The notes under the pieces are model-generated. The model was not told where the DNA came from. It ran no database searches and was given only the letters and a program-made list of their open reading frames with translations. Source: an uncultured Veillonellaceae bacterium (GTDB lineage: Bacteria > Bacillota > Negativicutes > Veillonellales > Dialisteraceae). From it: a stretch of DNA of 64,000 nucleotides. The translations under genes were made by a program, and so were the position numbers. Positions 3,185 to 63,566 of this stretch are shown piece by piece (within the stretch, counting starts at the first letter, position 1; each line of letters begins with the position of its first letter). The stretch lies in NCBI GenBank assembly GCA_958348245.1, contig CATVYJ010000005.1:13625-77624 (forward strand), read 5' to 3'.

Positions 3185-3906
3185 GGCTGTCCCTTCCTTT
3201 CTGCGAGGTATTCCTCTTCGGAAATGGCGTGGAATTTCACCAGGTCGCCCGCGTGGAGGAGGCTCGGGTCCGGATCGCTGGGACGGAAGAGCTCCACCGG
3301 GGTGCGGCCGATGAGCTGCCAGCCGCCGGGGGTGGAGATGGGATAGCCCCCGGTCTGGCAGCCGGCGATGCCGATGCTCCGCGCGGGGATGGACGTGCGG
3401 GGTGTCTGGCGGCGCGGCGCGGCGATGCGCGGGTCCATGCCGCCCATGTAGGGAAATCCCGGACAGAAGCCGATCATGTACACGAGGTACTGCGGCGCGG
3501 TGTGGAGGCGGATCACGTCGCCCACGGTGAGATGATTGTACTCCGCTACGAAGCCGATGTCCGGGCCGTACTCGCCGCCGTAGCATACGGGGATGTCCAC
3601 CACCCGGGGCGGCGTGGTCTCTCCCGCGCCCGCGGAGGGGATGGCCTCCTCCGTGAGGCGGTCCGACACGAGCTGGAAGGCGGATTTCCCCGAGCGGCCC
3701 CCGCGCTGCTTCACCGTGAAGGGATTGTAGTACACGGCGAGGCTCGTGTAGGAAATGACCGTCTCCACGAGACCGGGGAAGGGATGGGCGTCCAGCTCAT
3801 CCGCGAGGGCTTTTACCGCGTGGTGCACTTCGGGGCTGATGGCGTCGCCGAAGCGGACGAGGAGGCCCGCTTCTCCCAGCGGCAGAATGGTATAGTCGTG
3901 TTTCAC
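3181..3906 (-). CDS. pxpB: 5-oxoprolinase subunit B (KipI / allophanate hydrolase subunit 1 family)
   Basis: 241 aa, MKHDYTILPLGEAGLLVRFGD... with the cyclophilin-like AHS1 domain pattern. Confidence 0.85.
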   Translation of the reverse strand: MKHDYTILPLGEAGLLVRFGDAISPEVHHAVKALADELDAHPFPGLVETVISYTSLAVYYNPFTVKQRGGRSGKSAFQLVSDRLTEEAIPSAGAGETTPPRVVDIPVCYGGEYGPDIGFVAEYNHLTVGDVIRLHTAPQYLVYMIGFCPGFPYMGGMDPRIAAPRRQTPRTSIPARSIGIAGCQTGGYPISTPGGWQLIGRTPVELFRPSDPDPSLLHAGDLVKFHAISEEEYLAERKGQP

Positions 3907-45316: not shown

Positions 45317-46687
45317 ATGGACGAAAAACAGACCTGGCCGGAGATCGACTGGGAAAAAGAGGATGAGAAATATATCTGGCACCCGGCGCAGCAGATGAAG
45401 GACGCGGAAGTCTTTCCGCCGGTGGTGATCGACCACGCGGAGGGGCTCTACCTGTACGACACGAAAGGGAAAGCCTATCTCGACATCATCAGCTCCTGGT
45501 GGTGCAATCTCCTCGGCCACTGCAACCCGGAGATCAACGAAGCCGTCAAGAAGCAGGTGGACGAGCTGGAGCACGTGATCTTCACGAATTTCTCCCACCG
45601 GCCCGCCATCGAGCTCTGCCGCGAGCTCGCGCCGCTCCTGCCGGAAGGGCTGTGCCGGTTCAGCTTCCACGACAACGGGTCTTCCGCGGTGGAAGCGGCC
45701 CTGAAGATGGCCTTCCAGTACCATTACCAGACGGGCCATCCCGAGCGGCAGCGCTTCATGTGCCTCGCCGACTCCTACCACGGCGAGACCATCGGCGCGC
45801 TCTCCGTGGGCGGCATGGACATGTACGCGAAGATTTATCAGCCCATGATGATGCACAACATCCATTTCGACGGGCTCGACTGCTTCCGCTGCCCCTACGG
45901 GAAGACCCGCGATACCTGCGCGTGCGAATGCTTCGAGAGCGCGGAGCAGGCCTTTGAGACATACGGGAAGCAGACCGCCGCGGTCATCGTGGAACCCATC
46001 CTGCAGGGCGCGGCGGGCATGCGCATCTATCCCGCGGAGTACCTCAGGAAACTCAGGAAGCTCTGCGACGCATACGGCGTCCTCCTGATCGACGACGAGA
46101 TCGCCGCGGGCTTCGGCCGCACGGGGAAACTCTTCGCCATCGAACACGCCGGCATCAGCCCGGACATTCTCTGCACCTCCAAAGGGCTCACCGGCGGATA
46201 CCTCCCCATGTCCATCACCATCACTACGGACAGGATTTACAACGCCTTCTACGACGACTACGGCACGCACAAAGCCTTCGTGCACAGCCATACCTACGCG
46301 GGCAATCCCATCGGCTGCGCCGCGGCGCTCGCCGTGCTGCGCATCCTGAAGCGCGACCATATCCTCGAGAAAGCCGCCGAAGTGGGCGTCTATCTCCATG
46401 AGGAGCTGGAGAAGGCCCTCGGCGGCCATCCGAATATGGGCGAGATCCGGCACATCGGCCTCATCAACGCCATGGAGCTCGTGGAAGACCGGAAGACGAA
46501 GAAGCCTTTTGATCCGAAGCGGCGCATCGGCTGGCAGATTTTCCGCCGCGCCATGGCCCGGGGCCTCGTGCTCCGTCCCATGGGGGATGTGATCTATTTC
46601 AACCCGCCTCTCACGCTCGATAAGGAAACGGCGAAGAAGGCGGTGGACCTCTGCCGGGAATCGGTGGAGGATGTGCTCGGAAAGTAA
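45317..46687 (+). CDS. bioA: adenosylmethionine-8-amino-7-oxononanoate aminotransferase
   Basis: 456 aa class-III aminotransferase, ...LLIDDEIAAGFGRTGKLFA... Confidence 0.85.
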   Translation: MDEKQTWPEIDWEKEDEKYIWHPAQQMKDAEVFPPVVIDHAEGLYLYDTKGKAYLDIISSWWCNLLGHCNPEINEAVKKQVDELEHVIFTNFSHRPAIELCRELAPLLPEGLCRFSFHDNGSSAVEAALKMAFQYHYQTGHPERQRFMCLADSYHGETIGALSVGGMDMYAKIYQPMMMHNIHFDGLDCFRCPYGKTRDTCACECFESAEQAFETYGKQTAAVIVEPILQGAAGMRIYPAEYLRKLRKLCDAYGVLLIDDEIAAGFGRTGKLFAIEHAGISPDILCTSKGLTGGYLPMSITITTDRIYNAFYDDYGTHKAFVHSHTYAGNPIGCAAALAVLRILKRDHILEKAAEVGVYLHEELEKALGGHPNMGEIRHIGLINAMELVEDRKTKKPFDPKRRIGWQIFRRAMARGLVLRPMGDVIYFNPPLTLDKETAKKAVDLCRESVEDVLGK

Positions 46688-47030: not shown

Positions 47031-47070
47031 ATGTATTCTATGGTCAAAAAGGAGGATAGCAGATAAGACC
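47031..47070 (+). promoter_or_regulatory. conserved leader hairpin motif (copy 1) in the roughly 190-nt 5'UTR of cassette 1
   Basis: gtATTCTatGGTCaaAAAGGAGGatagcagataaGACCg. See the copies at 50211 and 58877. Confidence 0.4.
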
Positions 47071-47193: not shown

Positions 47194-48357
47194 ATGATGG
47201 ACACTCTGGCTCAGAACAGCCATCTGTTTGATGAACTGTTTCAGGGCGTATACGGCGTCGCGGACATCGGCATCCTGTCCATGTTCGTCATCGGCTTTAT
47301 CCTGATGTTCCTCGCCGTCAGATACGACTATGAACCGATGCTGCTCTTCCCGATGGGCGTCGGCTGTATTCTGGCCAACATCCCCGGTCACTATGCCGTA
47401 CTGCAGGAACCGGGCGCGGAAGGCTTCCTTTTCGTTCTCTACAAAGCAGGCATTGCCAATGAACTTTTCCCGGTCATGATCTTTATCGCCATCGGCGCGA
47501 TGTGCGAATTCAGCCCGCTTATGAGAAAACCCTACGTGATGTTCTTCGCGGCGGCTGCGCAGTTCGGTATCTTCATGACGGCGTTCCTCGCGGCGCTGGT
47601 AGGCTTCCCCTTCAACCAGGCGGCCTCCATCGGCATCATCGGCGCGGCTGACGGCCCGACCACCATTTTCGTCGCTTCCCGTTATGCGCAGGAAATGCTC
47701 GGACCGTTGTCCGTAGCGGCGTACTGCTACATGTCCCTCGTACCGGTCATCCAGCCCCCGATCATCAAGCTGCTCACCACGAAGAAAGAACGCCAGATCC
47801 GCATGCCCTTCACCGGCGACACCCCGGTATCTGACCGCGCTCTCTTCATTTTCCCGCTGATGATCGTCATGGTCGCCGGCATCGTGGCTCCCATGTCCGT
47901 ACCGCTCATCGGCGCCCTCATGTTCGGCAACCTGCTGAAAGTGTCCGGCTGCACGGATCAGCTCGCGAACTGCGCGAAGGATGACCTGTCCAACCTCGTC
48001 ACCCTGTTCCTCGGTCTGGTCGTAGGCTCCACCATGACGGCGGAAAACTTCCTGACCTTCGACGTGTTCAAGATCCTCTGCCTCGGCGCGGTGGCCTTCG
48101 TATTCGATACGGCAGGCGGCGTCCTCTTCGCAAAGATCCTGAACCTCTTCCTCGCGAAGAAGATCAACCCCATGATCGGCGCGTGCGGCATCTCCGCATT
48201 CCCCATGTCCGGCCGTGTTATCGCTAAAATGGCGCTGAAAGACGATCCCACGAACTTCATCGTGCAGGATGCCATCGGCGTCAACGTAGCCGGCCAGATC
48301 GCATCCGTCGTCGCAGGCGGTCTCGTTGTCTGCATGATTCCGATGCTGTCCAAGTAA
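47194..48357 (+). CDS. Na+-translocating decarboxylase beta subunit (OadB/GcdB/MmdB family), paralog A1
   Basis: 387 aa, ...AASIGIIGAADGPTTIFVASRYA...LVPVIQPPIIKLLTTKKERQIRM...FGNLLKVSG...KINPMIGACGISAFPMSGRV... These are the hallmark OadB motifs (compare AAAIGIIGGADGPTAIY, LIQPPIMKALTT..ERKIRM, INPLIGSAGVSAVPMAARV). Confidence 0.8.
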   Translation: MMDTLAQNSHLFDELFQGVYGVADIGILSMFVIGFILMFLAVRYDYEPMLLFPMGVGCILANIPGHYAVLQEPGAEGFLFVLYKAGIANELFPVMIFIAIGAMCEFSPLMRKPYVMFFAAAAQFGIFMTAFLAALVGFPFNQAASIGIIGAADGPTTIFVASRYAQEMLGPLSVAAYCYMSLVPVIQPPIIKLLTTKKERQIRMPFTGDTPVSDRALFIFPLMIVMVAGIVAPMSVPLIGALMFGNLLKVSGCTDQLANCAKDDLSNLVTLFLGLVVGSTMTAENFLTFDVFKILCLGAVAFVFDTAGGVLFAKILNLFLAKKINPMIGACGISAFPMSGRVIAKMALKDDPTNFIVQDAIGVNVAGQIASVVAGGLVVCMIPMLSK

Positions 48358-48372
48358 GGAGGCCTTTCATAC

Positions 48373-48492
48373 ATGGAACCGACAAGTGCAGCTCTTTTCC
48401 AGATGGTGGTCTGCGTACCGCTCATGTTCGTCGTCATCGGCATTTTCGTTCTGCTCACCAAGGGCCTGACGAAACTGTTCCCGGCGAAATAA
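48373..48492 (+). CDS. 39-aa single-TM peptide, OadG (gamma subunit) N-terminal-anchor-like. It is below the ORF-track size cutoff.
   Basis: MEPTSAALFQMVVCVPLMFVVIGIFVLLTKGLTKLFPAK, SD aaggagg 10 nt upstream. Compare the OadG N-terminus ...[41 protein letters not shown]. Confidence 0.6.
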   Translation: MEPTSAALFQMVVCVPLMFVVIGIFVLLTKGLTKLFPAK

Positions 48493-48630
48493 TCCGGCTG
48501 GAATTCTGAAACATTCGGAATGAGGGGGGCCCTCGAAAGCCTTCCGCGTCCCTCAAGGCGCGCTCCCGCCTTTCTTCCGGGAAAGCGCGGGAACACACCT
48601 CTTTTACCTGAAAAGGCGGTGTAAATCCCA
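48493..48630 (+). promoter_or_regulatory. conserved structured intercistronic spacer (nested hairpins + U-rich tail) between the mini-peptide gene and the Dcu gene. It is a candidate attenuator or RNA-processing site.
   Basis: gaggggggccctc, then cgcgcuCCCGccuuucuuCCGGGaaagcgcg, then acacaccucuuuuacc. It is about 95% identical to 51665-51804, more than the flanking coding DNA. Confidence 0.45.
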
Positions 48631-49941
48631 ATGGATATTTCGACTCCCGCTCTTGCCTCCATCATCGTACTGGTGGCAATCGTCGTATTCTCCTGCTTCC
48701 GCGATATCAACGTAGGTATCCTCGGCACGGCAGGGGGCCTTCTGGTCGGCATGATGTTTGCCGGCATGAAAATCAGCGAAGTCTACAAAGGCTGGCCGCT
48801 GTCCCTGTTCATGATCCTCGTGGGCGTTACGTTCATGTTCTCCGCCGCGCAGGTGAACGGCACCATGGAGAAATTCTCCGCGGTGTGCGTCCGTCTCGCC
48901 AAGGGCAACGTGGCTCTCATCCCGATCATTCTCTTCGTTCTCGTGACCTTCATCACCACCATCGGCCCCGGCAACATTGCCTCCACGGCCCTGATGGCTC
49001 CCATGTGCATGGCCATTGCAGGCCGCATCGGCCTCTCCCCGTTCTGCATGACGCTGCTCGTCGTCGGCGCGGCAAACGGCGCGGCCCTGTCTCCTTTCGC
49101 TCCGACCGGCATCATCTCCAACGGCCTCATCGCCCAGTGGGCGCCCCAGGTGGGCATCCCCACGGAGGAACTGTCCGGCATCGCCTGGAAGATTCACTGG
49201 AACTCTGAAATCGTACAGAGCGTCGTCAACTTCGGCGGCTTCTTCCTCACCGGCGGCCTCGCCTGGATGAGCAAGGCCAAGAGCGGCGGCGCGGACTTCG
49301 ACATCGACTCCATCGCTCCGAAGCCGGAACCCTTCGACTGGAAACAGAAGTACACCCTCTTCACGATGCTCGTCCTCGTGTGCGGCGTCATTTTCTTCAA
49401 ACTCGACGTAGGCATGCTCGCCTTCTGCATCGGCACCACCTTCATCCTCTTCAACATCGCGGATGACGGCGAAGCCGTGAAGAAAATGCCCTGGGGCGTC
49501 ATCGTCATGGTCTGCGGCATGTCCGTCCTGATCAACGTCATGGATAAGGCGGGCGGCCTGAACGCCCTCGTCGACATGATCGCCGTCGTATCCAACGGCA
49601 CGACCATCACCGGCGTCGTAGGCTTCATCGCGGGCCTGCTCTCCGCATACTCCAGCTCCTCCGGCGTCATCATGCCCATGTTCCTCAGCATGGTGCCGGG
49701 GCTCCTTGAAGCGGTGAATACCGTCGATGCGGACCACGCGGTCCGTCTGGCATCCGCCATCGACATCGGCGCTCACCTCGTCGATACGTCCCCGCTGTCC
49801 ACGCTGGGCGCGCTGTGCATCGCCAACGCGGTCACCGAAGACAAGGGCATTCTCTTCCGCAATCTGCTCCTGTGGGGGCTCTCCATGTCCGTCGTAGGCG
49901 GCGTCGTCTGCTACGTGGCCTTCGGTCTGCTCGGCCTGTAA
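48631..49941 (+). CDS. Dcu-family (DcuA/DcuB-like) anaerobic C4-dicarboxylate transporter, paralog B1
   Basis: 436 aa polytopic. It matches the DcuA/B N-terminal pattern (IIVLVAIVVFSCFRD.NVGILGTAGGLLVG versus DcuA VELIIVLLAIFLGARLGGIGIGFAGGLGV), a central ...TIGPGNIAS...LSPFAPTG, and the C-terminus. Confidence 0.6.
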   Translation: MDISTPALASIIVLVAIVVFSCFRDINVGILGTAGGLLVGMMFAGMKISEVYKGWPLSLFMILVGVTFMFSAAQVNGTMEKFSAVCVRLAKGNVALIPIILFVLVTFITTIGPGNIASTALMAPMCMAIAGRIGLSPFCMTLLVVGAANGAALSPFAPTGIISNGLIAQWAPQVGIPTEELSGIAWKIHWNSEIVQSVVNFGGFFLTGGLAWMSKAKSGGADFDIDSIAPKPEPFDWKQKYTLFTMLVLVCGVIFFKLDVGMLAFCIGTTFILFNIADDGEAVKKMPWGVIVMVCGMSVLINVMDKAGGLNALVDMIAVVSNGTTITGVVGFIAGLLSAYSSSSGVIMPMFLSMVPGLLEAVNTVDADHAVRLASAIDIGAHLVDTSPLSTLGALCIANAVTEDKGILFRNLLLWGLSMSVVGGVVCYVAFGLLGL

Positions 49942-49983: not shown

Positions 49984-50020
49984 AACTGGAAACGTACTTC
50001 GTGTCGTTTCCAGTTTTTTT
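49984..50020 (+). terminator. intrinsic terminator of cassette 1
   Basis: aactggaaacg tacttcgtgt cgtttccagtt ttttt. Confidence 0.7.
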
Positions 50021-50210: not shown

Positions 50211-50250
50211 GCATTCTATGGTCGAAAAGGAGGGCAGCAGACAAGACCGA
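50211..50250 (+). promoter_or_regulatory. conserved leader hairpin motif (copy 2)
   Basis: gcATTCTatGGTCgaAAAGGAGGgcagcagacaaGACCg. Confidence 0.4.
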
Positions 50251-50371
50251 CAATGGCTGCGCGTTATAAACGCGTCTTTTATGAAGTCGATAGAATTACG
50301 GAAATGTCCTTCATGAAGACGAGAGAAAAATAACGGCGCGCAATATTTTCCTAAGAGGAGGAATTTTTAAC

Positions 50372-51532
50372 ATGGACACTCTGGCTCAGAACAGCGGTCT
50401 GTTTGACGAGCTTTTCCAGGGCATTTACGGACTGGCAGATGTGGGCATCCTCGCGATGTTCGTCGTCGGCTTCATCCTCATGTTCCTCGCCGTCAGATAC
50501 GACTATGAACCGATGCTGCTCTTCCCGATGGGCATCGGCTGCGTTCTTGCAAACATTCCCGGACACTACGCAGTGCTCCAGGATCCCGGAAGCGAAGGCT
50601 TCCTGTACGTTCTCTACAAAGCGGGTATCGCAAACGAACTTTTCCCGGTCATGATCTTTATCGCCATTGGTGCAATGTGCGAATTTGACCCGCTTATGAG
50701 AAAGCCGTTCGTCATGCTCTTCGCAGCAGCGGCTCAGTTCGGTATCTTCATGACTGCGTTCCTCGCGACGCTCCTCGGCTTCCCCTTCAACCAGGCGGCA
50801 GCCATCGGCATCATCGGCGCAGCTGACGGCCCGACCACGATCTTCGTCGCTTCCCGCTATGCGCAGGAAATGCTTGGACCGTTGTCCGTAGCGGCGTACT
50901 GCTACATGTCCCTCGTACCGGTTATTCAGCCTCCGATCATCAAACTGCTCACCACCAAACATGAACGCAAGATCCGTATGCCGTTCACCGGTGAAGCTCC
51001 GGTTTCTGATCGCGCACTCTTCATTTTCCCGCTGATGATCGTCATGGTCGCCGGCGTTGTAGCTCCTATTTCCGTACCGCTCATCGGCGCTCTCATGTTC
51101 GGCAACCTGCTGAAGGTATCCGGCTGCACCGACGACCTGGCAGACTGCGCGAAGGATGACCTGTCCAACCTCGTCACCCTGTTCCTCGGCCTGGTCGTAG
51201 GCTCCACCATGACGGCGGAAAACTTCCTGACCTTCGACGTATTCAAGATCCTCTGCCTCGGCGCGGTCGCATTCGTATTCGATACCGCCGGCGGCGTCAT
51301 CTTCGCGAAGATCGTCAATCTGTTCCTGACCAAGAAGATCAACCCGATGATCGGCGCATGCGGCATCTCCGCATTCCCGATGTCCGGCCGTGTTATCGCC
51401 AAGATGGCGCTGAAAGAAGATCCGACGAACTTCATCGTCCAGGATGCTATCGGCGTCAACGTAGCTGGTCAGATCGCCTCCGTTGTTGCCGGCGGCCTCG
51501 TGCTCTGCATGATCCCGCTGCTGTCTAAATAA
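50372..51532 (+). CDS. Na+-translocating decarboxylase beta subunit (OadB family), paralog A2
   Basis: 386 aa. About 85% identical to A1. From about residue 100 it is identical to A3 in protein and, over more than 600 bp, in DNA. Confidence 0.8.
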   Translation: MDTLAQNSGLFDELFQGIYGLADVGILAMFVVGFILMFLAVRYDYEPMLLFPMGIGCVLANIPGHYAVLQDPGSEGFLYVLYKAGIANELFPVMIFIAIGAMCEFDPLMRKPFVMLFAAAAQFGIFMTAFLATLLGFPFNQAAAIGIIGAADGPTTIFVASRYAQEMLGPLSVAAYCYMSLVPVIQPPIIKLLTTKHERKIRMPFTGEAPVSDRALFIFPLMIVMVAGVVAPISVPLIGALMFGNLLKVSGCTDDLADCAKDDLSNLVTLFLGLVVGSTMTAENFLTFDVFKILCLGAVAFVFDTAGGVIFAKIVNLFLTKKINPMIGACGISAFPMSGRVIAKMALKEDPTNFIVQDAIGVNVAGQIASVVAGGLVLCMIPLLSK

Positions 51533-51544
51533 GGAGGTCTTAGT

Positions 51545-51664
51545 ATGAATCCTGTAAGTGCAGCTCTTTTCCAGATGGTGGTCTGCGTACCGCTCATGTT
51601 CGTCGTTATCGGCGTTTTCGTTCTGCTCACCAAGGGCCTGACGAAAATGTTCCCGGCGAAATAA
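51545..51664 (+). CDS. 39-aa OadG-anchor-like mini-peptide (copy 2)
   Basis: MNPVSAALFQMVVCVPLMFVVIGVFVLLTKGLTKMFPAK, SD aaggagg. Confidence 0.6.
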   Translation: MNPVSAALFQMVVCVPLMFVVIGVFVLLTKGLTKMFPAK

Positions 51665-51804
51665 TCTGGCTGGAATTCTGAAACATTCGGAATGAGGGGG
51701 GCCCTCGAAAGCCTCCCGCGTCCCTCAAGGCGCGCTCCCGCGCTTTCTCACGGGAAGGCGCGGGAACACACCTCTTTTTACCTGAAAAGGTGGTGTAAAT
51801 CCCA

Positions 51805-53118
51805 ATGGATATTTCGACCCCGGCACTTGCCTCCATCATCGTACTGGTGGCAATCGTCCTGTTCTCCTGCTTCCGGGATATCAACGTAGGTATCCTCGGC
51901 ACCGCAGGCGGTCTGATTGTCGGCATGGTATTCTCCGGCATGAAGATCAATGAAGTCTACAAAGGCTGGCCGCTGTCCCTGTTCATGATCCTCGTCGGCG
52001 TAACGTTCATGTTCTCCGCCGCACAGGTTAACGGCACGATGGAGAAATTCTCCGCGATCTGCGTACGTCTTGCGAAAGCAAACATCCGCCTGATTCCGTT
52101 CATTCTGTTCTTCCTCGTGACCTTCATCACGACCATCGGCCCCGGCAACATCGCAACCACCGCTCTGATGGCTCCGATGTGCATGGCCATTGCAGGCCGT
52201 ATCGGCCTCTCCCCGTTCTGCATGACGCTGCTCGTAGTCGGCGCGGCAAACGGCGCGGCCTTCTCTCCTTTCGCTCCGACCGGCATCATTTCCAACGGCA
52301 TCATCGCCAGCTGGGCTCCGCAGGTCGGCATTCCTCAGGAAGCTCTTTCCGGTCTCGGCTGGAAGATTCACTGGAACTCTGAAATCGCTCAGGGCGTCGT
52401 CAACTTCGGCGGCTTCTTCCTGACCGGCGGCCTTGCCTGGATGGGCAAAGCCAAAGGCGGCGCGGACTTCGACATCGATTCCATCGCTCCGAAGCCGGAC
52501 GCATTTGACTGGAAGCAGAAGTACACCCTCTTCACGATGGTCGTACTGGTTGTAGGCGTTATCGCCTTCCACCTGGACGTAGGCATGCTTTCCTTCGTTA
52601 TCGGCACGACCTACATCCTCTTCAACATTGCTGACGACGGCGAAGCCGTAAAGAAAATGCCCTGGGGCGTCATCGTCATGGTCTGCGGTATGTCTGTCCT
52701 GATCAACGTCATGGATAAGGCAGGCGGCCTGAACGCTCTCATCGACATGATCGCCATCGTGTCCAACGGCACGACCATCAACGGCGTGGTCGGCTTCATC
52801 GCAGGTCTGATTTCCGCATACTCCAGCTCCTCCGGCGTTGTCATGCCGATGTTCCTGAACATGGTTCCCGGCCTGCTGCAGGCTGTGGGCACCTTTGATG
52901 CAGATCATGCGGTTCGTCTCGCATCCTCCATCAATATCGGCGCTCACCTCGTAGATACCTCCCCGCTGTCCACCCTCGGCGCGCTCTGCATTGCAAACGC
53001 GGCTGTAGACGACAAGGCGAAGGGCGTACTCTTCCGGAACCTCCTGTTCTGGGGTCTGTCCATGTCCGTCGTAGGCGCAGTGGTCTGCTACGTATTCTTC
53101 GGTCTGCTCGGCCTGTAA
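51805..53118 (+). CDS. Dcu-family C4-dicarboxylate transporter, paralog B2
   Basis: 437 aa, MDISTPALASIIVLVAIVLFSCFRDINVGILGTAGGLIVG... About 95% identical to B4, with 100% DNA-identical tracts. Confidence 0.6.
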   Translation: MDISTPALASIIVLVAIVLFSCFRDINVGILGTAGGLIVGMVFSGMKINEVYKGWPLSLFMILVGVTFMFSAAQVNGTMEKFSAICVRLAKANIRLIPFILFFLVTFITTIGPGNIATTALMAPMCMAIAGRIGLSPFCMTLLVVGAANGAAFSPFAPTGIISNGIIASWAPQVGIPQEALSGLGWKIHWNSEIAQGVVNFGGFFLTGGLAWMGKAKGGADFDIDSIAPKPDAFDWKQKYTLFTMVVLVVGVIAFHLDVGMLSFVIGTTYILFNIADDGEAVKKMPWGVIVMVCGMSVLINVMDKAGGLNALIDMIAIVSNGTTINGVVGFIAGLISAYSSSSGVVMPMFLNMVPGLLQAVGTFDADHAVRLASSINIGAHLVDTSPLSTLGALCIANAAVDDKAKGVLFRNLLFWGLSMSVVGAVVCYVFFGLLGL

Positions 53119-53180: not shown

Positions 53181-53194
53181 CGCGCCCGCGGCAA

Positions 53195-53460
53195 AGCGCG
53201 GCCCGGCATACAGAGAACAGAAAAGAAACGGACGGCGCGGGAAACGGAGGATGGAAAAGGAGAAAACGGAGACGGGAGAGGGCGGAGGCAGCCGGAAGCG
53301 GGGAGGAACGGAAACGAGGCGGGAAGCGCGGAGACCGGGAAAGGCGGAGGGCCCGCGCTTCCGCCCGGCGCTTCGATGAGGGCCGCGGACAAGGGGGCGG
53401 AGAACGGGTGTGCGGCCCTTCCGCGGCGGACGTCCGCAGAAGAGCGGGCAGGGAGAATAT
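53195..53460 (+). repeat. roughly 260-nt strongly purine-skewed (GA-rich) low-complexity tract
   Basis: acagagaacagaaaagaaacggacggcgcgggaaacggaggatggaaaaggagaaaacggagacgggagagggcggaggcagccggaagcggggaggaacggaaacgaggcgggaagcgcggagaccgggaaaggcggaggg... Almost no pyrimidines on the + strand. Confidence 0.6.
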
Positions 53461-53595: not shown

Positions 53596-53774
53596 AGGCG
53601 GGCAATGCCCAAAACCGGCCAGTGTACCGTATGATACACACCGGAAAAGAAGACGGGCGAGCGGCGCAGTTTACAGATCTCATTCCTATTTTTCTTCCGC
53701 GCGCTCCCGCCTCGGGCAGGCAGCCGGTTCAGGCAGGGGACATCCCCGCCATTTCTCACGACGGACTCCGCATG

Positions 53775-53800
53775 GGCGGGCCCGCTTTCTTTTCAAGGTG
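53775..53800 (+). promoter_or_regulatory. hairpin + U-tract (attenuator-like) just upstream of the B3 RBS
   Basis: catgggcgggcccgctttcttttcaagg, then ggtggtgtaaag RBS. Confidence 0.4.
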
Positions 53801-53813
53801 GTGTAAAGTTTTA

Positions 53814-55127
53814 ATGGAAATTTCAACCCCGGCTCTTGCCTCCATCATCGTACTGGTGGCAATCGTCCTGTTTTCCTGCTTCCGGGATATCAACGTAGGT
53901 ATCCTCGGCACGGCAGGCGGTCTGCTGGTGGGCATGCTCTTCTCGGGCATGAAAATCAGCGAAGTCTACGAGGGCTGGCCTCTCAGCCTCTTCATGATCC
54001 TCGTGGGCGTGACGTTCATGTTCTCCTGCGCGCAGGTGAACGGCACCATGGAAAAATTCTCCGCGGTGTGCGTCCGTCTGGCCAAGGCGAATGTGGCGCT
54101 CATTCCGATCATCATGTTCCTGCTGACCACGTTCATCGTGACCATCGGCCCCGGCAACATTGCGGGCACGGCGCTCCTCGCGCCGGTCGCCATGGCGATC
54201 GCCGGCCGTATCGGCCTCTCCCCGTTCTGCATGACGCTGCTCGTGGTCGGCGCGGCAAACGGCGCGGCTTTCTCTCCTTTCGCACCGACGGGCATCATCT
54301 CCAACGGCATCATCGCCGGCTGGGCTCCGCAGGTAGGCATTCCGGCGGATCAGCTGGACAGCCTGGCCTGGAAAGTGCATTTCAACTCTGAAATCGCGCA
54401 GGGCATCGTCAACTTCGGCGGCTTCTTCCTCACGGGCGGCGCGGCATGGATGATGCGCGCCCGCAAAGACGCGAGCTTCGACATCGACTCCATCGCTCCG
54501 AAGCCGGGCGCTTTCGACTGGAAGCAGAAGTACACCCTTCTCACCATGGTCGTTCTCGTGGTGGGCGTCATTTTCTTCAAACTTGACGTAGGCATGCTCT
54601 CCTTCATCATCGGCACCACCTACATTCTCTTCAACATCGCCGACGACGGCGAAGCCGTGAAGAAAATGCCCTGGGGCGTCATCGTCATGGTCTGCGGTAT
54701 GTCTGTCCTGATCAACGTCATGGACCAGGCGGGCGGCCTGAACGCGCTCGTCCAGATGATCGCCGTCGTATCGAACGACACCACCGTGACCGGCGTGGTG
54801 GGCTTCATCTCCGGCCTCATCTCCGCGTACTCCAGCTCCTCCGGCGTCGTCATGCCCATGTTCCTCAACATGGTGCCCGGCCTGCTCGAAGCAGTGGGCA
54901 CGGTGGACGCGGACCATGCGATCCGTCTCGCTTCTTCCATCAACATCGGCTCCCACCTGGTGGATACGTCTCCGCTGTCCACGCTGGGCGCGCTCTGCAT
55001 CGCGAACGCCGCTGTAGACGACAAGGCGAAGGGCATCCTCTTCCGGAATCTGCTCTTCTGGGGCCTCTCCATGTCCATCGTGGGCGGCTTCGTGTGCTAC
55101 GTCGCATTCGGCCTGCTCGGCCTCTGA
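53814..55127 (+). CDS. Dcu-family C4-dicarboxylate transporter, paralog B3 (solitary, with no OadB partner)
   Basis: 437 aa, MEISTPALASIIVLVAIVLFSCFRDINVGILGTAGGLLVG... Internal start; the upstream part of the 501-aa track ORF is leader. Confidence 0.6.
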   Translation: MEISTPALASIIVLVAIVLFSCFRDINVGILGTAGGLLVGMLFSGMKISEVYEGWPLSLFMILVGVTFMFSCAQVNGTMEKFSAVCVRLAKANVALIPIIMFLLTTFIVTIGPGNIAGTALLAPVAMAIAGRIGLSPFCMTLLVVGAANGAAFSPFAPTGIISNGIIAGWAPQVGIPADQLDSLAWKVHFNSEIAQGIVNFGGFFLTGGAAWMMRARKDASFDIDSIAPKPGAFDWKQKYTLLTMVVLVVGVIFFKLDVGMLSFIIGTTYILFNIADDGEAVKKMPWGVIVMVCGMSVLINVMDQAGGLNALVQMIAVVSNDTTVTGVVGFISGLISAYSSSSGVVMPMFLNMVPGLLEAVGTVDADHAIRLASSINIGSHLVDTSPLSTLGALCIANAAVDDKAKGILFRNLLFWGLSMSIVGGFVCYVAFGLLGL

Positions 55128-58876: not shown

Positions 58877-58916
58877 ATTCTCAGCCGGAAAGGAGGACAG
58901 TGGGTCAGGCTGGAAT
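58877..58916 (+). promoter_or_regulatory. conserved leader hairpin motif (copy 3, with compensatory stem change)
   Basis: gcATTCTcAGCCggAAAGGAGGacagtgggtcaGGCTgg. The stem AGCC/GGCT replaces GGTC/GACC of copies 1 and 2. Confidence 0.4.
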
Positions 58917-59033: not shown

Positions 59034-60194
59034 ATGGATATGTTGGCACAGAATAGCCAGCTGTTTGACGAGCTTTTCCAGGGCGTGTACGGACTGGCCG
59101 ACGTCGGCGTGCTGTCGATGTTTGTCGTAGGCTTCATCCTCATGTTCCTCGCCGTCAAATACGATTATGAACCGGTCCTGCTGTTCCCGATGGGCATCGG
59201 ATGCATTCTTGCAAACATCCCGGGCCATTACGCAGTACTCCAGGATCCCGGAAGCGAAGGCTTCCTGTATGTGCTTTATCAGGCGGGTGTCGCAAACGAA
59301 CTTTTCCCGGTCATGATTTTTATCGCCATTGGTGCAATGTGCGAATTTGACCCGCTGATGAGAAAGCCTTTCGTCATGCTCTTCGCAGCAGCCGCTCAGT
59401 TTGGTATCTTCATGACCGCGTTCCTCGCGACGCTCCTCGGCTTCCCCTTCAACCAGGCGGCGGCTATCGGCATCATCGGCGCGGCTGACGGCCCGACCAC
59501 GATCTTCGTCGCTTCCCGCTATGCGCAGGAAATGCTTGGACCGTTGTCCGTAGCGGCGTACTGCTACATGTCCCTCGTACCGGTTATTCAGCCTCCGATC
59601 ATCAAACTGCTCACCACCAAACATGAACGCAAGATCCGTATGCCGTTCACCGGTGAAGCTCCGGTTTCTGATCGCGCACTCTTCATTTTCCCGCTGATGA
59701 TCGTCATGGTCGCCGGCGTTGTAGCTCCTATTTCCGTACCGCTCATCGGCGCTCTCATGTTCGGCAACCTGCTGAAGGTATCCGGCTGCACCGACGACCT
59801 GGCAGACTGCGCGAAGGATGACCTGTCCAACCTCGTCACCCTGTTCCTCGGCCTGGTCGTAGGCTCCACCATGACGGCGGAAAACTTCCTGACCTTCGAC
59901 GTATTCAAGATCCTCTGCCTCGGCGCGGTCGCATTCGTATTCGATACCGCCGGCGGCGTCATCTTCGCGAAGATCGTCAATCTGTTCCTGACCAAGAAGA
60001 TCAACCCGATGATCGGCGCATGCGGCATCTCCGCATTCCCGATGTCCGGCCGTGTTATCGCCAAGATGGCGCTGAAAGAAGATCCGACGAACTTCATCGT
60101 CCAGGATGCTATCGGCGTCAACGTAGCTGGTCAGATCGCATCGGTCGTTGCAGGCGGCCTCGTCCTCTGCATGATCCCGATGCTTATGCAGTGA
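59034..60194 (+). CDS. Na+-translocating decarboxylase beta subunit (OadB family), paralog A3
   Basis: 386 aa, MDMLAQNSQLFDELFQGVYGLADVGVLSMFVVGFILMFLAVKYDYEP... The 3' two-thirds are identical to A2. Confidence 0.8.
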   Translation: MDMLAQNSQLFDELFQGVYGLADVGVLSMFVVGFILMFLAVKYDYEPVLLFPMGIGCILANIPGHYAVLQDPGSEGFLYVLYQAGVANELFPVMIFIAIGAMCEFDPLMRKPFVMLFAAAAQFGIFMTAFLATLLGFPFNQAAAIGIIGAADGPTTIFVASRYAQEMLGPLSVAAYCYMSLVPVIQPPIIKLLTTKHERKIRMPFTGEAPVSDRALFIFPLMIVMVAGVVAPISVPLIGALMFGNLLKVSGCTDDLADCAKDDLSNLVTLFLGLVVGSTMTAENFLTFDVFKILCLGAVAFVFDTAGGVIFAKIVNLFLTKKINPMIGACGISAFPMSGRVIAKMALKEDPTNFIVQDAIGVNVAGQIASVVAGGLVLCMIPMLMQ

Positions 60195-60209
60195 TTGGAG
60201 GGATAAGTT

Positions 60210-60329
60210 ATGAATCCAGTAGCAGCATCCCTTTTCCAGATGGTGGTATGCGTACCGCTGATGTTCCTGGTCATCCTCATTTTCGTGGGTCTCACGAAGC
60301 TCCTCACGAAGATGTTCCCCGCAGAATAA
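60210..60329 (+). CDS. 39-aa OadG-anchor-like mini-peptide (copy 3)
   Basis: MNPVAASLFQMVVCVPLMFLVILIFVGLTKLLTKMFPAE, SD ggaggg. Confidence 0.6.
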   Translation: MNPVAASLFQMVVCVPLMFLVILIFVGLTKLLTKMFPAE

Positions 60330-60424
60330 TTCTGCCCGATCCTTTATTTTCCACATAAAGGCGTGCCCCCGTATCCGCGAGGGTGCGGGGACCCACCTCT
60401 TCCATGCAAAGGTGGTGTAAACCA

Positions 60425-61738
60425 ATGGATATTTCGACCCCGGCTCTTGCCTCCATCATCGTACTGGTGGCAATCGTCCTGTTCTCCTGCTTCCGGGACT
60501 GCAACGTAGGTATTCTCGGCACGGCAGGGGGCCTTCTGGTCGGCATGGTCTTCGCAGGCATGAAGATCAGCGCTGTCTACAAAGGCTGGCCGCTGTCTCT
60601 GTTCATGATCCTCGTCGGCGTAACGTTCATGTTCTCCGCCGCACAGGTCAACGGCACGATGGAAAAATTCTCGGCTGTGTGCGTACGTCTTGCGAAAGCA
60701 AACATTCGCCTGATTCCGTTCATTCTGTTCTTCCTCGTGACCTTCATTACGACCATCGGCCCCGGCAACATCGCTTCCACCGCTCTGATGGCTCCGATGT
60801 GCATGGCTATCGCTGGCCGTATCGGCCTCTCCCCGTTCTGCATGACGCTGCTCGTAGTCGGCGCGGCAAACGGCGCGGCCTTCTCTCCTTTCGCTCCGAC
60901 CGGCATCATTTCCAACGGCATCATCGCCAGCTGGGCTCCGCAGGTCGGCATTCCTCAGGAAGCTCTTTCCGGTCTCGGCTGGAAGATTCACTGGAACTCT
61001 GAAATCGCTCAGGGCGTCGTCAACTTCGGCGGCTTCTTCCTCACCGGCGGCCTTGCCTGGATGGCAAAGGCCAAAGGCGGCGCGGACTTCGACATCGATT
61101 CCATCGCTCCGAAGCCGGAACCCTTCGACTGGAAGCAGAAATACACCCTGCTCTCCATGGTCGTCCTGGTAGTAGGCGTTATTTTCTTCAAACTCGACGT
61201 AGGCATGCTCTCCTTCTGCATCGGCACCACGTACATCCTCTTCAACATTGCGGATGACGGCGATGCAGTGAAGAAAATGCCCTGGGGCGTCATCACCATG
61301 GTCTGCGGTATGTCTGTCCTGATCAACGTCATGGACGAGGCAGGCGGCCTGAACGCTCTCGTTGATATGATCGCTGTCGTTTCCAACGGCACGACCGTCA
61401 ACGGCGTGGTCGGCTTCATCGCAGGTCTGATTTCCGCATACTCCAGCTCCTCCGGCGTTGTCATGCCGATGTTCCTGAACATGGTTCCCGGCCTGCTGCA
61501 GGCTGTGGGCACCTTTGATGCAGATCATGCGGTTCGTCTCGCATCCTCCATCAATATCGGCGCTCACCTCGTAGATACCTCCCCGCTGTCCACCCTCGGC
61601 GCGCTCTGCATTGCAAACGCGGCTGTAGACGACAAGGCGAAGGGCGTCCTCTTCAGAAACCTCCTCTTCTGGGGCCTGTCCATGTCCATTGTCGGCGCAG
61701 TGGTCTGCTATGTCTTCTTCGGTCTCCTCGGACTGTAA
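60425..61738 (+). CDS. Dcu-family C4-dicarboxylate transporter, paralog B4
   Basis: 437 aa, MDISTPALASIIVLVAIVLFSCFRDCNVGILGTAGGLLVG... Internal start after aaaggtggtgtaaacca. Confidence 0.6.
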   Translation: MDISTPALASIIVLVAIVLFSCFRDCNVGILGTAGGLLVGMVFAGMKISAVYKGWPLSLFMILVGVTFMFSAAQVNGTMEKFSAVCVRLAKANIRLIPFILFFLVTFITTIGPGNIASTALMAPMCMAIAGRIGLSPFCMTLLVVGAANGAAFSPFAPTGIISNGIIASWAPQVGIPQEALSGLGWKIHWNSEIAQGVVNFGGFFLTGGLAWMAKAKGGADFDIDSIAPKPEPFDWKQKYTLLSMVVLVVGVIFFKLDVGMLSFCIGTTYILFNIADDGDAVKKMPWGVITMVCGMSVLINVMDEAGGLNALVDMIAVVSNGTTVNGVVGFIAGLISAYSSSSGVVMPMFLNMVPGLLQAVGTFDADHAVRLASSINIGAHLVDTSPLSTLGALCIANAAVDDKAKGVLFRNLLFWGLSMSIVGAVVCYVFFGLLGL

Positions 61739-63218: not shown

Positions 63219-63566
63219 AAGCACATCAACCAATACCAAAAACGTACAAATGCAATGAACGAGATAAACGGAAGCTGACAAGCCTCTGCAGAGAGCCGAT
63301 GACAGGTGCAAATCGGCGTGGCCCGGCGGACAGACATCACTCGCGAGCACTTTTTCTGAATGGAGTAGGAAAAGGCGGAACGTTCCCGTTACGAACAGAG
63401 CCCAAGTACAATGTAGGGTGGTACCGCGCACAGCGCCCCTATCTTCAGCAGAAGCTGAGGGTAGGATTTTTTAGTATCACCGGTACGGCGGCTTCCGAGT
63501 AAGAAATCAGGGTGGTACCGCGCACAGCGCCTCTGTCTCCGCAAAAGGAGGCGGGGCGTTTTTTTG
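63219..63566 (+). ncRNA. T-box riboswitch leader with a duplicated T-box/terminator module
   Basis: Two copies of the canonical T-box sequence AGGGTGGTACCGCG (63414-63427 and about 63509-63522). Each is followed by a GC hairpin + U-run (…gagggtaggatttttt and cgcctc…gaggcggggcgttttttt). An AGAGA box lies upstream. Confidence 0.65.

Follow-up and report, generated by a model that had tools for sequence, protein, structure and literature searches.

A clade-specific structured mRNA segment that may mask the ribosome site of MatC-like carrier genes in gut Veillonellales

Local structure at ribosome-binding sites sets differing translation rates within operons (PMC5318159). The intercistronic element analysed here is like the SD-sequestering hairpins of that work in several respects: the SD of an internal cistron is predicted to be paired by an upstream arm, there is no ligand pocket, and the operon encodes membrane proteins that are likely needed in set ratios. 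It differs from them in that the masking hairpin is joined, by a 0-nt linker, to a second and independently covarying hairpin, and in that the motif is conserved across a clade within a gap of ~100-140 nt whose remainder varies freely. RNA thermometers of the ROSE and fourU types are also similar, with 5' hairpins of which the last occludes the SD imperfectly, a U-run, a bulged G and moderate stability. In our element, however, the partner of the four U is an A-run and not AGGA, and the setting is intercistronic, in a gut anaerobe and away from heat-shock or virulence genes, such that the likeness is architectural only. A search of the whole window against Rfam 15 at gathering scores, and of 46.7-61.9 kb at E <= 10, gave no match on any spacer or leader, apart from one nearby chance-level hit to anti-hemB in the leader of a fourth carrier gene (B3), whose 22 bits fall short of the gathering score of 49.5.

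Riboswitch platforms of the SD-sequestrator type share with the element an anti-SD:SD helix and a possible competing anti-anti-SD strand. Unlike riboswitches, it has no Rfam match and no conserved aptamer: the loop and stem of its first core hairpin vary freely, and the only invariant single-strand candidates are the anti-SD arm, the SD and a GC-rich flank. Hairpins that stabilise or process transcripts between cistrons are also known, for instance in cggR-gapA of B. subtilis and in puf of Rhodobacter. Our element is likewise stable, lies between cistrons and probably does not terminate transcription, and differential stability of the two segments is possible; a conserved SD complement, however, is not a feature of those hairpins. 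Finally, intrinsic terminators and attenuators combine a GC-rich stem with a nearby U-run on the sense strand, as this element does.

The window (the whole stretch of 64,000 nucleotides that was analysed, with a G+C content of 62%) contains three paralogous cassettes in this region, numbered 1, 2 and 4 (c1, c2 and c4). Each consists, in order, of a gene for a Na+-pump decarboxylase beta subunit (oadB; Pfam OAD_beta, 4.7e-137), a gene for a 39-aa peptide, a spacer, and a gene for a 436-437-aa carrier of the MatC_N/CitMHS family. The peptide weakly matches NCBIfam NF040909 OadG_rel_small (20.3 bits; cut-off 25), which weakly suggests an OadG-related small subunit. The carrier genes had been labelled Dcu, a name that we replace by matC since they encode MatC_N/CitMHS-family proteins and no DcuA/B/C protein; NCBI names the relatives "SLC13 family permease". 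The fourth carrier gene, B3 (53814-55127), is solitary and has its own promoter. Among the matches listed, the closest relatives are uncultured gut Veillonellales. The spacer coordinates given in the original prediction for c1 and c2 are correct, and both spacers lie between the 39-aa reading frame and the gene for the 436/437-aa transporter.

47194-49941: cassette 1
50372-53118: cassette 2
59034-61738: cassette 4
48373-48492, plus strand: c1 gene for the 39-aa single-helix peptide, upstream of the spacer (from the reading-frame list; present in all relatives)
48493-48630, plus strand: c1 spacer
48631-49941, plus strand: c1 gene for the MatC_N/CitMHS-family dicarboxylate carrier (Pfam PF07158, 3e-30; PF03600, 1e-17)
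49986-50020, plus strand: canonical intrinsic terminator after c1 matC, a stem followed immediately by U7, with equivalents after the other three matC genes
51665-51804, plus strand: c2 spacer
60330-60424, plus strand: c4 spacer, with the matC start codon at 60425

Strong sigma-70-like promoters (TTGACA-17-TACAAT) were found only upstream of each oadB and of B3, and canonical terminators only 3' of the carrier genes (all four matC genes). The matC genes of c1, c2 and c4 have no strong promoter of their own. On this layout, each oadB-peptide-matC cassette is probably a single transcript that runs from the oadB promoter to the terminator behind matC. A promoter-like CTGACG-16-AATAAT occurs at 48466-48493 and at 51638-51665, with only 9 of 12 consensus positions; it falls within the constrained C-terminus and stop codon of the peptide gene and is degraded in two related variants (L003 and L012) and in c4. 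A small open reading frame inside the c1 spacer (48520-48624, 34 aa) was rejected as a gene, since neither c2 nor the relatives conserve it.

The spacer had been singled out because it appeared more conserved than the genes around it, at about 95% against about 85% identity between c1 and c2. We measured 94% for the spacers and 86-88% for the flanking genes, so the figures are sound for this pair. The excess, however, is not specific to the spacer. It is concentrated in one tract:

48388-48562, plus strand: high-identity tract between c1 and c2 (97.1%), spanning codons 6-39 of the peptide gene and the 5' spacer half, delimited by sliding identity and site counts

This tract has 5 differences in 175 nt (P = 3e-6 against a background of 13%). 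Elsewhere the two cassettes are 88% identical in the first core hairpin (P2, below), 95% in the second (P3) and 90% over the first 30 nt of matC. Nor does the pattern extend to other pairs: in 15 further paralogue or orthologue pairs, identity is 77-92% for the genes but 54-73% for the spacers, and it falls to 22-59% in the 5' spacer half. The tract has the hallmark of gene conversion, a contiguous excess of identity that crosses functional boundaries and includes synonymous sites. Cassettes c2 and c4, whose spacers are only 54% identical, in turn have exact runs of 656, 250 and 227 nt in common within oadB and matC, and metagenomes differ in which of two spacer types precedes an identical MatC protein (L026/L028 as against L027/L029). 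Together with the divergence in the 15 pairs, these observations indicate that the locus is a recombination mosaic. Judged from these sequence comparisons, the c1-c2 spacer identity is best read as a recent gene-conversion tract between paralogous cassettes and not as the result of selection. The argument from conservation to function thus fails as originally made, since the identity comes from a conversion tract that takes in coding sequence and the non-conserved half of the spacer. Between c1 and c2, the structure-bearing part is in fact the less conserved half. For scans of this kind, high identity between paralogous non-coding segments of a multi-copy locus can be a footprint of gene conversion and need not signal function.

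We compared about 14 distinct spacer variants from gut Veillonellales, drawn from two Veillonellales MAGs, at least 10 metagenome contigs and further contigs retrieved by exact-protein look-up; the scan of genome contigs gave at least four loci, and 13 sequences entered the core alignment. Common to all variants is a 3' core of ~75 nt with two hairpins, P2 and P3, and the RNAalifold consensus on the 13-sequence alignment consists of exactly these two. Reading 5' to 3', one or more variable P1 hairpins come first, then a GC-rich flank (AAGGCGCGC or a like sequence), P2 (CCC(C)...(G)GGG) and, with no linker, P3, which runs ACACACCUCUYUU, loop, AAAAGGUGGUGUAA; the AUG lies 5-8 nt downstream. The strings quoted in the original prediction (cgcgctcccg...cgggaaagcgcg, acacacctctttt(t)acc and aaaggYggtgta) are all present in the spacers.

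48500-48554, plus strand: P1 region of c1, lineage-variable hairpins AUUCUGAA/UUCGGAAU and GGGGGGC/GCCUUCC, from folds
48555-48563, plus strand: c1 AAGGCGCGC, an SD-like ("pseudo-SD") flank of P2 on the side away from the anti-SD arm, which it faces with C against A at every other position
48564-48592, plus strand: P2 of c1, GC-rich, UCCCGCC...GGCGGGA, from the RNAalifold consensus
48593-48622, plus strand: P3 of c1, formed by the anti-SD arm ACACACCUCUUUU at 48593-48605 and, at 48611-48622, AAAAGGCGGUGU with the matC SD in it
51736-51765, plus strand: P2 of c2, 13 contiguous pairs, one of them between a G that c1 lacks and the C left bulged in c1
51766-51796, plus strand: P3 of c2, the anti-SD:SD hairpin, from folds
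60341-60361, plus strand: P1 of c4, CCUUUAU...AUAAAGG, which resembles P3 of the related variant L014
60367-60390, plus strand: P2 of c4, CCCCGUAUCC-GCGA-GGGUGCGGGG, aligned to and covarying with P2 of c1 and c2
60392-60417, plus strand: P3 of c4, CCCACCUCUU...AAAGGUGGUG, with an SD unpaired probability of 0.02 and an opening cost not above that of shuffles

The whole spacers fold more stably than dinucleotide shuffles, with z of -2.9 to -3.2 for c1, -4.4 to -4.6 for c2 and -2.0 to -2.4 for c4, and z ranges from -2.4 to -5.0 in 13 of 16 spacers of relatives with at least 75% MatC identity. The covariance model R1 found the element at 48553-48636 (74 bits), 51725-51810 (83 bits) and 60356-60430 (70 bits). 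Its matches lie exclusively upstream of matC genes, three in the window and 23 in related loci, and no other match at E < 0.1 was obtained over the 64 kb. The element is thus specific to matC upstream regions, and we rejected a dispersed repeat of the REP or MITE type, with no copies at unrelated loci and the best other matches in the window at E > 0.1. R1 scored 56-90 bits on the plus strand and at most 22 bits on the minus strand; given also the G-U pairs in P2, this indicates a structure of the sense transcript and not of the DNA.

The gene order itself is old. A beta subunit followed by a small peptide and MatC is also found in Sporomusa, in Thermosinus and in one further relative (L023), there inside a full decarboxylase operon with carboxyltransferase, OadG-like subunit, biotin carrier, beta subunit, peptide, MatC, in some cases a second MatC, and a type-III CoA-transferase. 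Spacer lengths between peptide gene and matC span 18 to 212 nt among relatives. Only those whose MatC is at least about 75-77% identical have the P2/P3 core, which is degenerate at the limit of this range (L015, L017 and L020). Relatives at 70-74% identity have gaps of 18-26 nt with an ordinary GGAGG SD and no element, which indicates that the element is dispensable for the gene pair. The spacers of Sporomusa, Thermosinus and L022-L024 are unrelated or very short and thus add no covariation. On this distribution, the sequences indicate that the element is a clade-specific addition.

The 5' part of the spacer shows little constancy. P1 keeps its sequence only among c1, c2 and the near-identical metagenomic variant L005. 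The letters of the first hairpin that had been proposed, GAGGG/CCCUC (gaggggggccctc), are present, but its pairing is broken by a C-to-A change in L005, a change that the alternative pairing GGGGGGC/GCCUYCC withstands. P1 of c4 is possibly a duplicated anti-SD/SD unit, to judge from its likeness to P3 of L014.

P2 is the best supported helix by covariation, which the original prediction had named as a check across genomes. Compensatory changes were found in 7 of its 9 consensus pairs (CG/UA, GC/UA, CG/GC, GC/CG/AU and others), and anti-SD:SD complementarity was seen in all 13 core variants. Overall, 97% of the alignment cells of P2 are paired, none of 500 shuffles reached the observed covariation score, and pairing fell to 41-52% when the 3' partners were slid as a control. 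The c4 hairpin had been described as shorter and different; the c4 spacer is indeed shorter, but its CCCCGUAUCC...GGGUGCGGGG aligns with the hairpin of c1 and c2. P2 has no conserved loop or bulge, and its interior and loops vary freely. For this reason a ligand site appears unlikely, and P2 more probably acts as a fold insulator, a stacking platform or an mRNA-stabilising hairpin that keeps the anti-SD arm free for P3, on which it abuts and could stack. Dual hairpins like ANTAR or guanidine-II motifs, suggested by ACGG in the P2 loop of c2 and L004, were rejected, the loop being GCGA, GUUGGG or UGAAAGA elsewhere.

P3 begins directly behind P2, and its 5' arm ACACACCUCUUUU is complementary to the SD region AAAAGGYGGUGU: ACACACCU pairs with AGGU(G)GUGU, and the U-run with the A-run. 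Its consensus comprises eight pairs, to which the pairing of U-run and A-run adds an extension, and 95% of cells are paired across the 13 variants. The anti-SD arm is as invariant as the SD itself, whereas the adjoining P2 interior and P3 loop are variable. No double-sided change was seen in the 13-sequence alignment, as the invariance of the SD side leaves no room for one. Divergent arms nonetheless still cover the SD (CCUUUC:GAAAGG in L031, ACCUUU:AAAGGU in L021 and CACUUUU:AAAGGUG in L015), and on direct reading the lengths of the U-run and the A-run roughly track each other among variants. The predicted probability that the SD is unpaired is 0.00 for c1 and 0.00-0.21 for matC across the clade, compared with 0.15-0.77 for nine other genes of the window; that of the AUG is ~0.7 in c1, c2 and c4. 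Opening the SD costs 9.5 kcal/mol in c1 and 3-10 kcal/mol overall, and in 9 of 13 core variants the cost of 7-9.5 kcal/mol lies in the top 2-13% of shuffles. The dinucleotide-shuffled C/U-rich upstream sequence, however, already reaches a mean of 4.6-6.5 kcal/mol, and the native cost is no better than that of shuffles in c4, L021, L031, L015, L017 and B3. This control weakens the argument from masking energy, which is unexceptional. Since P3 shows no covariation and shuffles mask nearly as well, the case for this hairpin rests on the conserved complementarity and on the alternative arms.

An element analogous to the spacers had also been reported in front of B3. We found a degenerate remnant there, for which R1 gives only 13 bits (E = 0.5) and the fold has z = +0.16:

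53699-53803, plus strand: B3 leader, a degenerate derivative in which GCGCGCUCCCGCC (identical to the c1 5' arm) lies ~60 nt from GGGCGGG

In this leader, CCCGCUUUCUUUUC pairs weakly with AAGGUGGUG, 3' of GGGCGGG.

We propose, with moderate confidence, that the spacer core is a clade-specific structured mRNA segment that acts as an SD-masking translational throttle on the MatC-like gene. The 3' end of 16S rRNA in Firmicutes is CACCUCCUUU, which the anti-SD arm, CACCUC-UUU, resembles. The P3 arm may hence be an intramolecular mimic of the 16S 3' end that is paired with the matC SD. While P3 holds the SD, the start codon would be left single-stranded, and P3 would compete with the 30S subunit for the SD and so lower or gate initiation on matC. 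The carrier transcript would read through from the oadB promoter, with control exerted at translation. A cost of 3-10 kcal/mol should lower 30S binding without abolishing it, which is why we favour a throttle and only possibly a gate. On these models, masking probably reduces matC translation.

The hairpin and U-tract had originally been read as a terminator-like attenuator, that is, as a partial and possibly regulated intrinsic terminator that cuts read-through into matC. The ingredients are there, a GC-rich stem (P2, 9-13 bp) and a U4-5 run, and in L012, alone among the variants, P2 is prolonged by 7 perfect pairs right up to UCUCUUUAU, in a terminator-like manner. Hairpin-driven release, however, needs a U-run close to the stem, and a gap of 8-10 nt, too wide for such release, separates the run from the stable stem in 12 of 13 variants. 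The run itself (48602-48605 in c1) is only 3-5 U, interrupted by C, and is paired to the A-run and SD in every predicted fold, being itself part of the 5' arm of the SD-masking hairpin. A tract of at least about 5 U in 8, starting 0-2 nt past the stem, is seen in the true terminators of the locus and in none of the c1, c2 and c4 spacers. A terminator scan made no call in the c1, c2 or c4 spacer; its single call near B3 (53774-53787) is a minimal 5-bp stem with only three G-C pairs. All four carrier genes are followed by textbook terminators, a stem with U5-7 directly abutting, which indicates that this organism uses the standard geometry. Read-through is moreover needed for carrier expression, since matC of c1, c2 and c4 lacks the strong promoter that the solitary B3 has, and efficient termination in the spacer would silence these three genes. 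We therefore regard termination as highly improbable; the view that the spacer carries a cis-acting RNA structure placed to affect the carrier gene relative to oadB stands, but the terminator mechanism is not supported. An element of mRNA processing or stability deserves more weight, although we still consider it rather unlikely as the main function. Here P1 and P2 would mark an endonucleolytic site and protect segment ends, at the 3' end of the oadB-peptide part, the 5' end of the matC part or both, such that the halves of the operon reach different levels and P3 is secondary. Several stable intercistronic hairpins without terminator features, whose sequence varies while their structure is kept, would fit this, as would a P2 in which covariation goes along with a lack of any conserved loop or bulge. 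A transporter gene annotated as SLC13 in Phascolarctobacterium faecium, which immediately follows a beta-subunit gene, had 1136 against 157 TPM, and 3053 against 16, so transporter mRNA far exceeded that of the beta gene, albeit at low read counts (PMC7568257). By analogy, this strong uncoupling of adjacent genes points to control at the mRNA level there and would count against a translational throttle here; the locus, however, comes from another order and only possibly carries the element. The spacers contain no recognisable cleavage-site motif, and processing leaves unexplained why the most invariant non-coding stretch should be the exact complement of the SD. It is nevertheless compatible with a translational throttle, and both could operate.

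Masking could also be conditional, with the anti-SD arm pairing either with the real SD (OFF) or with the flank AAGGCGYGC beyond P2 (ON), and a factor, temperature or pH would then decide the balance, for instance through protonated A+.C wobbles where C stands opposite A. Of the seven flank positions, five are complementary to the arm in 11-12 of the 13 variants, and the remaining two or so are C opposite A in 10-12 of 13; in L012, which has U at both of these positions, the minimum-energy fold flips to the extended helix. When the SD is constrained to be unpaired, folding of c1, c2, c4, L014 and L030 yields this helix as the next-best structure, and the moderate stability of P3 (3-10 kcal/mol) is like that of tunable elements. 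As written, however, the extended helix is very weak, its G-C pairs standing singly between 1x1 mismatches; L031 does not retain it, and the variants are all related by descent and so amount to effectively one observation. There are no conserved unpaired nucleotides for a ligand pocket, the P2 loops are free to vary, and the Rfam riboswitch, thermometer and leader families gave no match at E <= 10. The flank may simply be a relic of a duplicated anti-SD/SD unit, given the likeness of c4 P1 to L014 P3. We consider a switch improbable, and its explicit three-strand form a long shot, in which pseudo-SD (AAGGCGYGC), anti-SD (ACACACCUC) and SD (AAAGGUGGUG) would exchange partners and acid pH, through A+.C wobbles, or a factor would turn the carrier ON. 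The SD-like loop of a conserved hairpin in the oadB leader could likewise act as a decoy for the anti-SD arm. We give similarly little credence to the absence of any dedicated function, by which the spacer would be GC-rich filler that folds by virtue of its composition while cassette similarity hitch-hikes on gene conversion. Conversion does account for the c1-c2 identity, SD masking is only modestly above shuffles, and relatives with spacers of 18-26 nt do without the element. Filler would not, however, be expected to show compensation in 7 of 9 P2 pairs among variants that are unalignable in their 5' halves, an anti-SD arm that is invariant between variable neighbours, or fold z of -2.4 to -5.0 in 13 of 16 spacers of relatives with at least 75% MatC identity.

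The P2/P3 motif is new in that it is restricted to one lineage and absent from Rfam, while the class to which it would belong, cis-acting mRNA structures that limit translation, is a familiar one. If the translational throttle is real, gut Veillonellales would set the amount of a dicarboxylate carrier, probably for succinate, per sodium-pump beta subunit at the level of translation. The motif is small, computationally recognisable and absent from Rfam, and would thus help to annotate uncultured genomes. It would also constitute a compact natural module for masking a ribosome site.

The cassette at window 47194-49941 and its paralogues, which amount to three and a half copies in 15 kb, were compared in gene content with the related loci L018, L019 and L023. 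They contain only a beta subunit gene (oadB), a gene for a 39-aa OadG-related peptide and a gene for a MatC-type carrier (matC). The cassettes lack the carboxyltransferase and biotin-carrier genes, both of which precede the equivalents in Sporomusa, Thermosinus and L023.

Three runs of sequence are exactly identical between cassettes 2 and 4: 656 nt (window 50822-51477 and 59484-60139), 227 nt (52195-52421 and 60815-61041) and 250 nt (52778-53027 and 61398-61647). All of these fall within oadB and matC, whereas the spacers between peptide gene and matC, as well as the leaders, differ strongly between the two cassettes. This pattern indicates that the paralogous cassettes are still undergoing gene conversion with one another. 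The same MatC protein (P0010) was also found behind two spacer types in different metagenomes (L026/L028 versus L027/L029, position 3393-3500 in each locus). Since an identical carrier follows either type, the spacer is a recombination boundary between cassette modules.

Several further elements were identified in the window:

47042-47070, 50220-50248 and 58883-58911: small hairpins in the oadB 5'UTRs
53641-53664: corresponding hairpin in the leader of B3, the solitary fourth carrier gene
50259-50275: terminator-like site in the leader of cassette 2
53190-53460: purine-rich, GGA/GGC-repetitive stretch of ~270 nt, located after the terminator of cassette 2 and before the promoter of B3
63246-63443 and 63510-63560: T-box leader (Rfam, 86.3 bits, E = 4e-19) and tandem repeat of its box and hairpin
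45317-46687: class-III aminotransferase gene (BioA-like), directly upstream of cassette 1

A 5'UTR of ~200 nt lies downstream of every oadB promoter. The small leader hairpin is also present at loci L001-L004, L011-L015, L017 and L031, and its stem covaries (GGUC/GACC, AGCC/GGCU, GGCC/GGCC and GCCC/GGGC). Its loop exposes a Shine-Dalgarno-like RRAAGGRGG with no start codon downstream, and longer hairpins follow it. An Rfam search returned no match for this hairpin. It may act as a stabiliser resembling STAB-SD, bind a protein or belong to an attenuator. No obvious ORF was found in the purine-rich stretch.

The T-box leader was absent from the default scan because its score is slightly lower than the Rfam gathering score of 93. 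The GGGUGGUACCGCG box and its terminator-like hairpin are repeated in tandem (63416-63428 and 63510-63522), and the gene downstream, starting at 63631, looks by eye like a putative lipoprotein or substrate-binding protein.

At locus L026 (1-1590), the ORF preceding the BioA-like gene matches the CbiA/AAA_26 families (BioD-like). Together, the BioA-like and BioD-like neighbours suggest that biotin-synthesis genes adjoin the gene for a subunit of a biotin-dependent decarboxylase pump.
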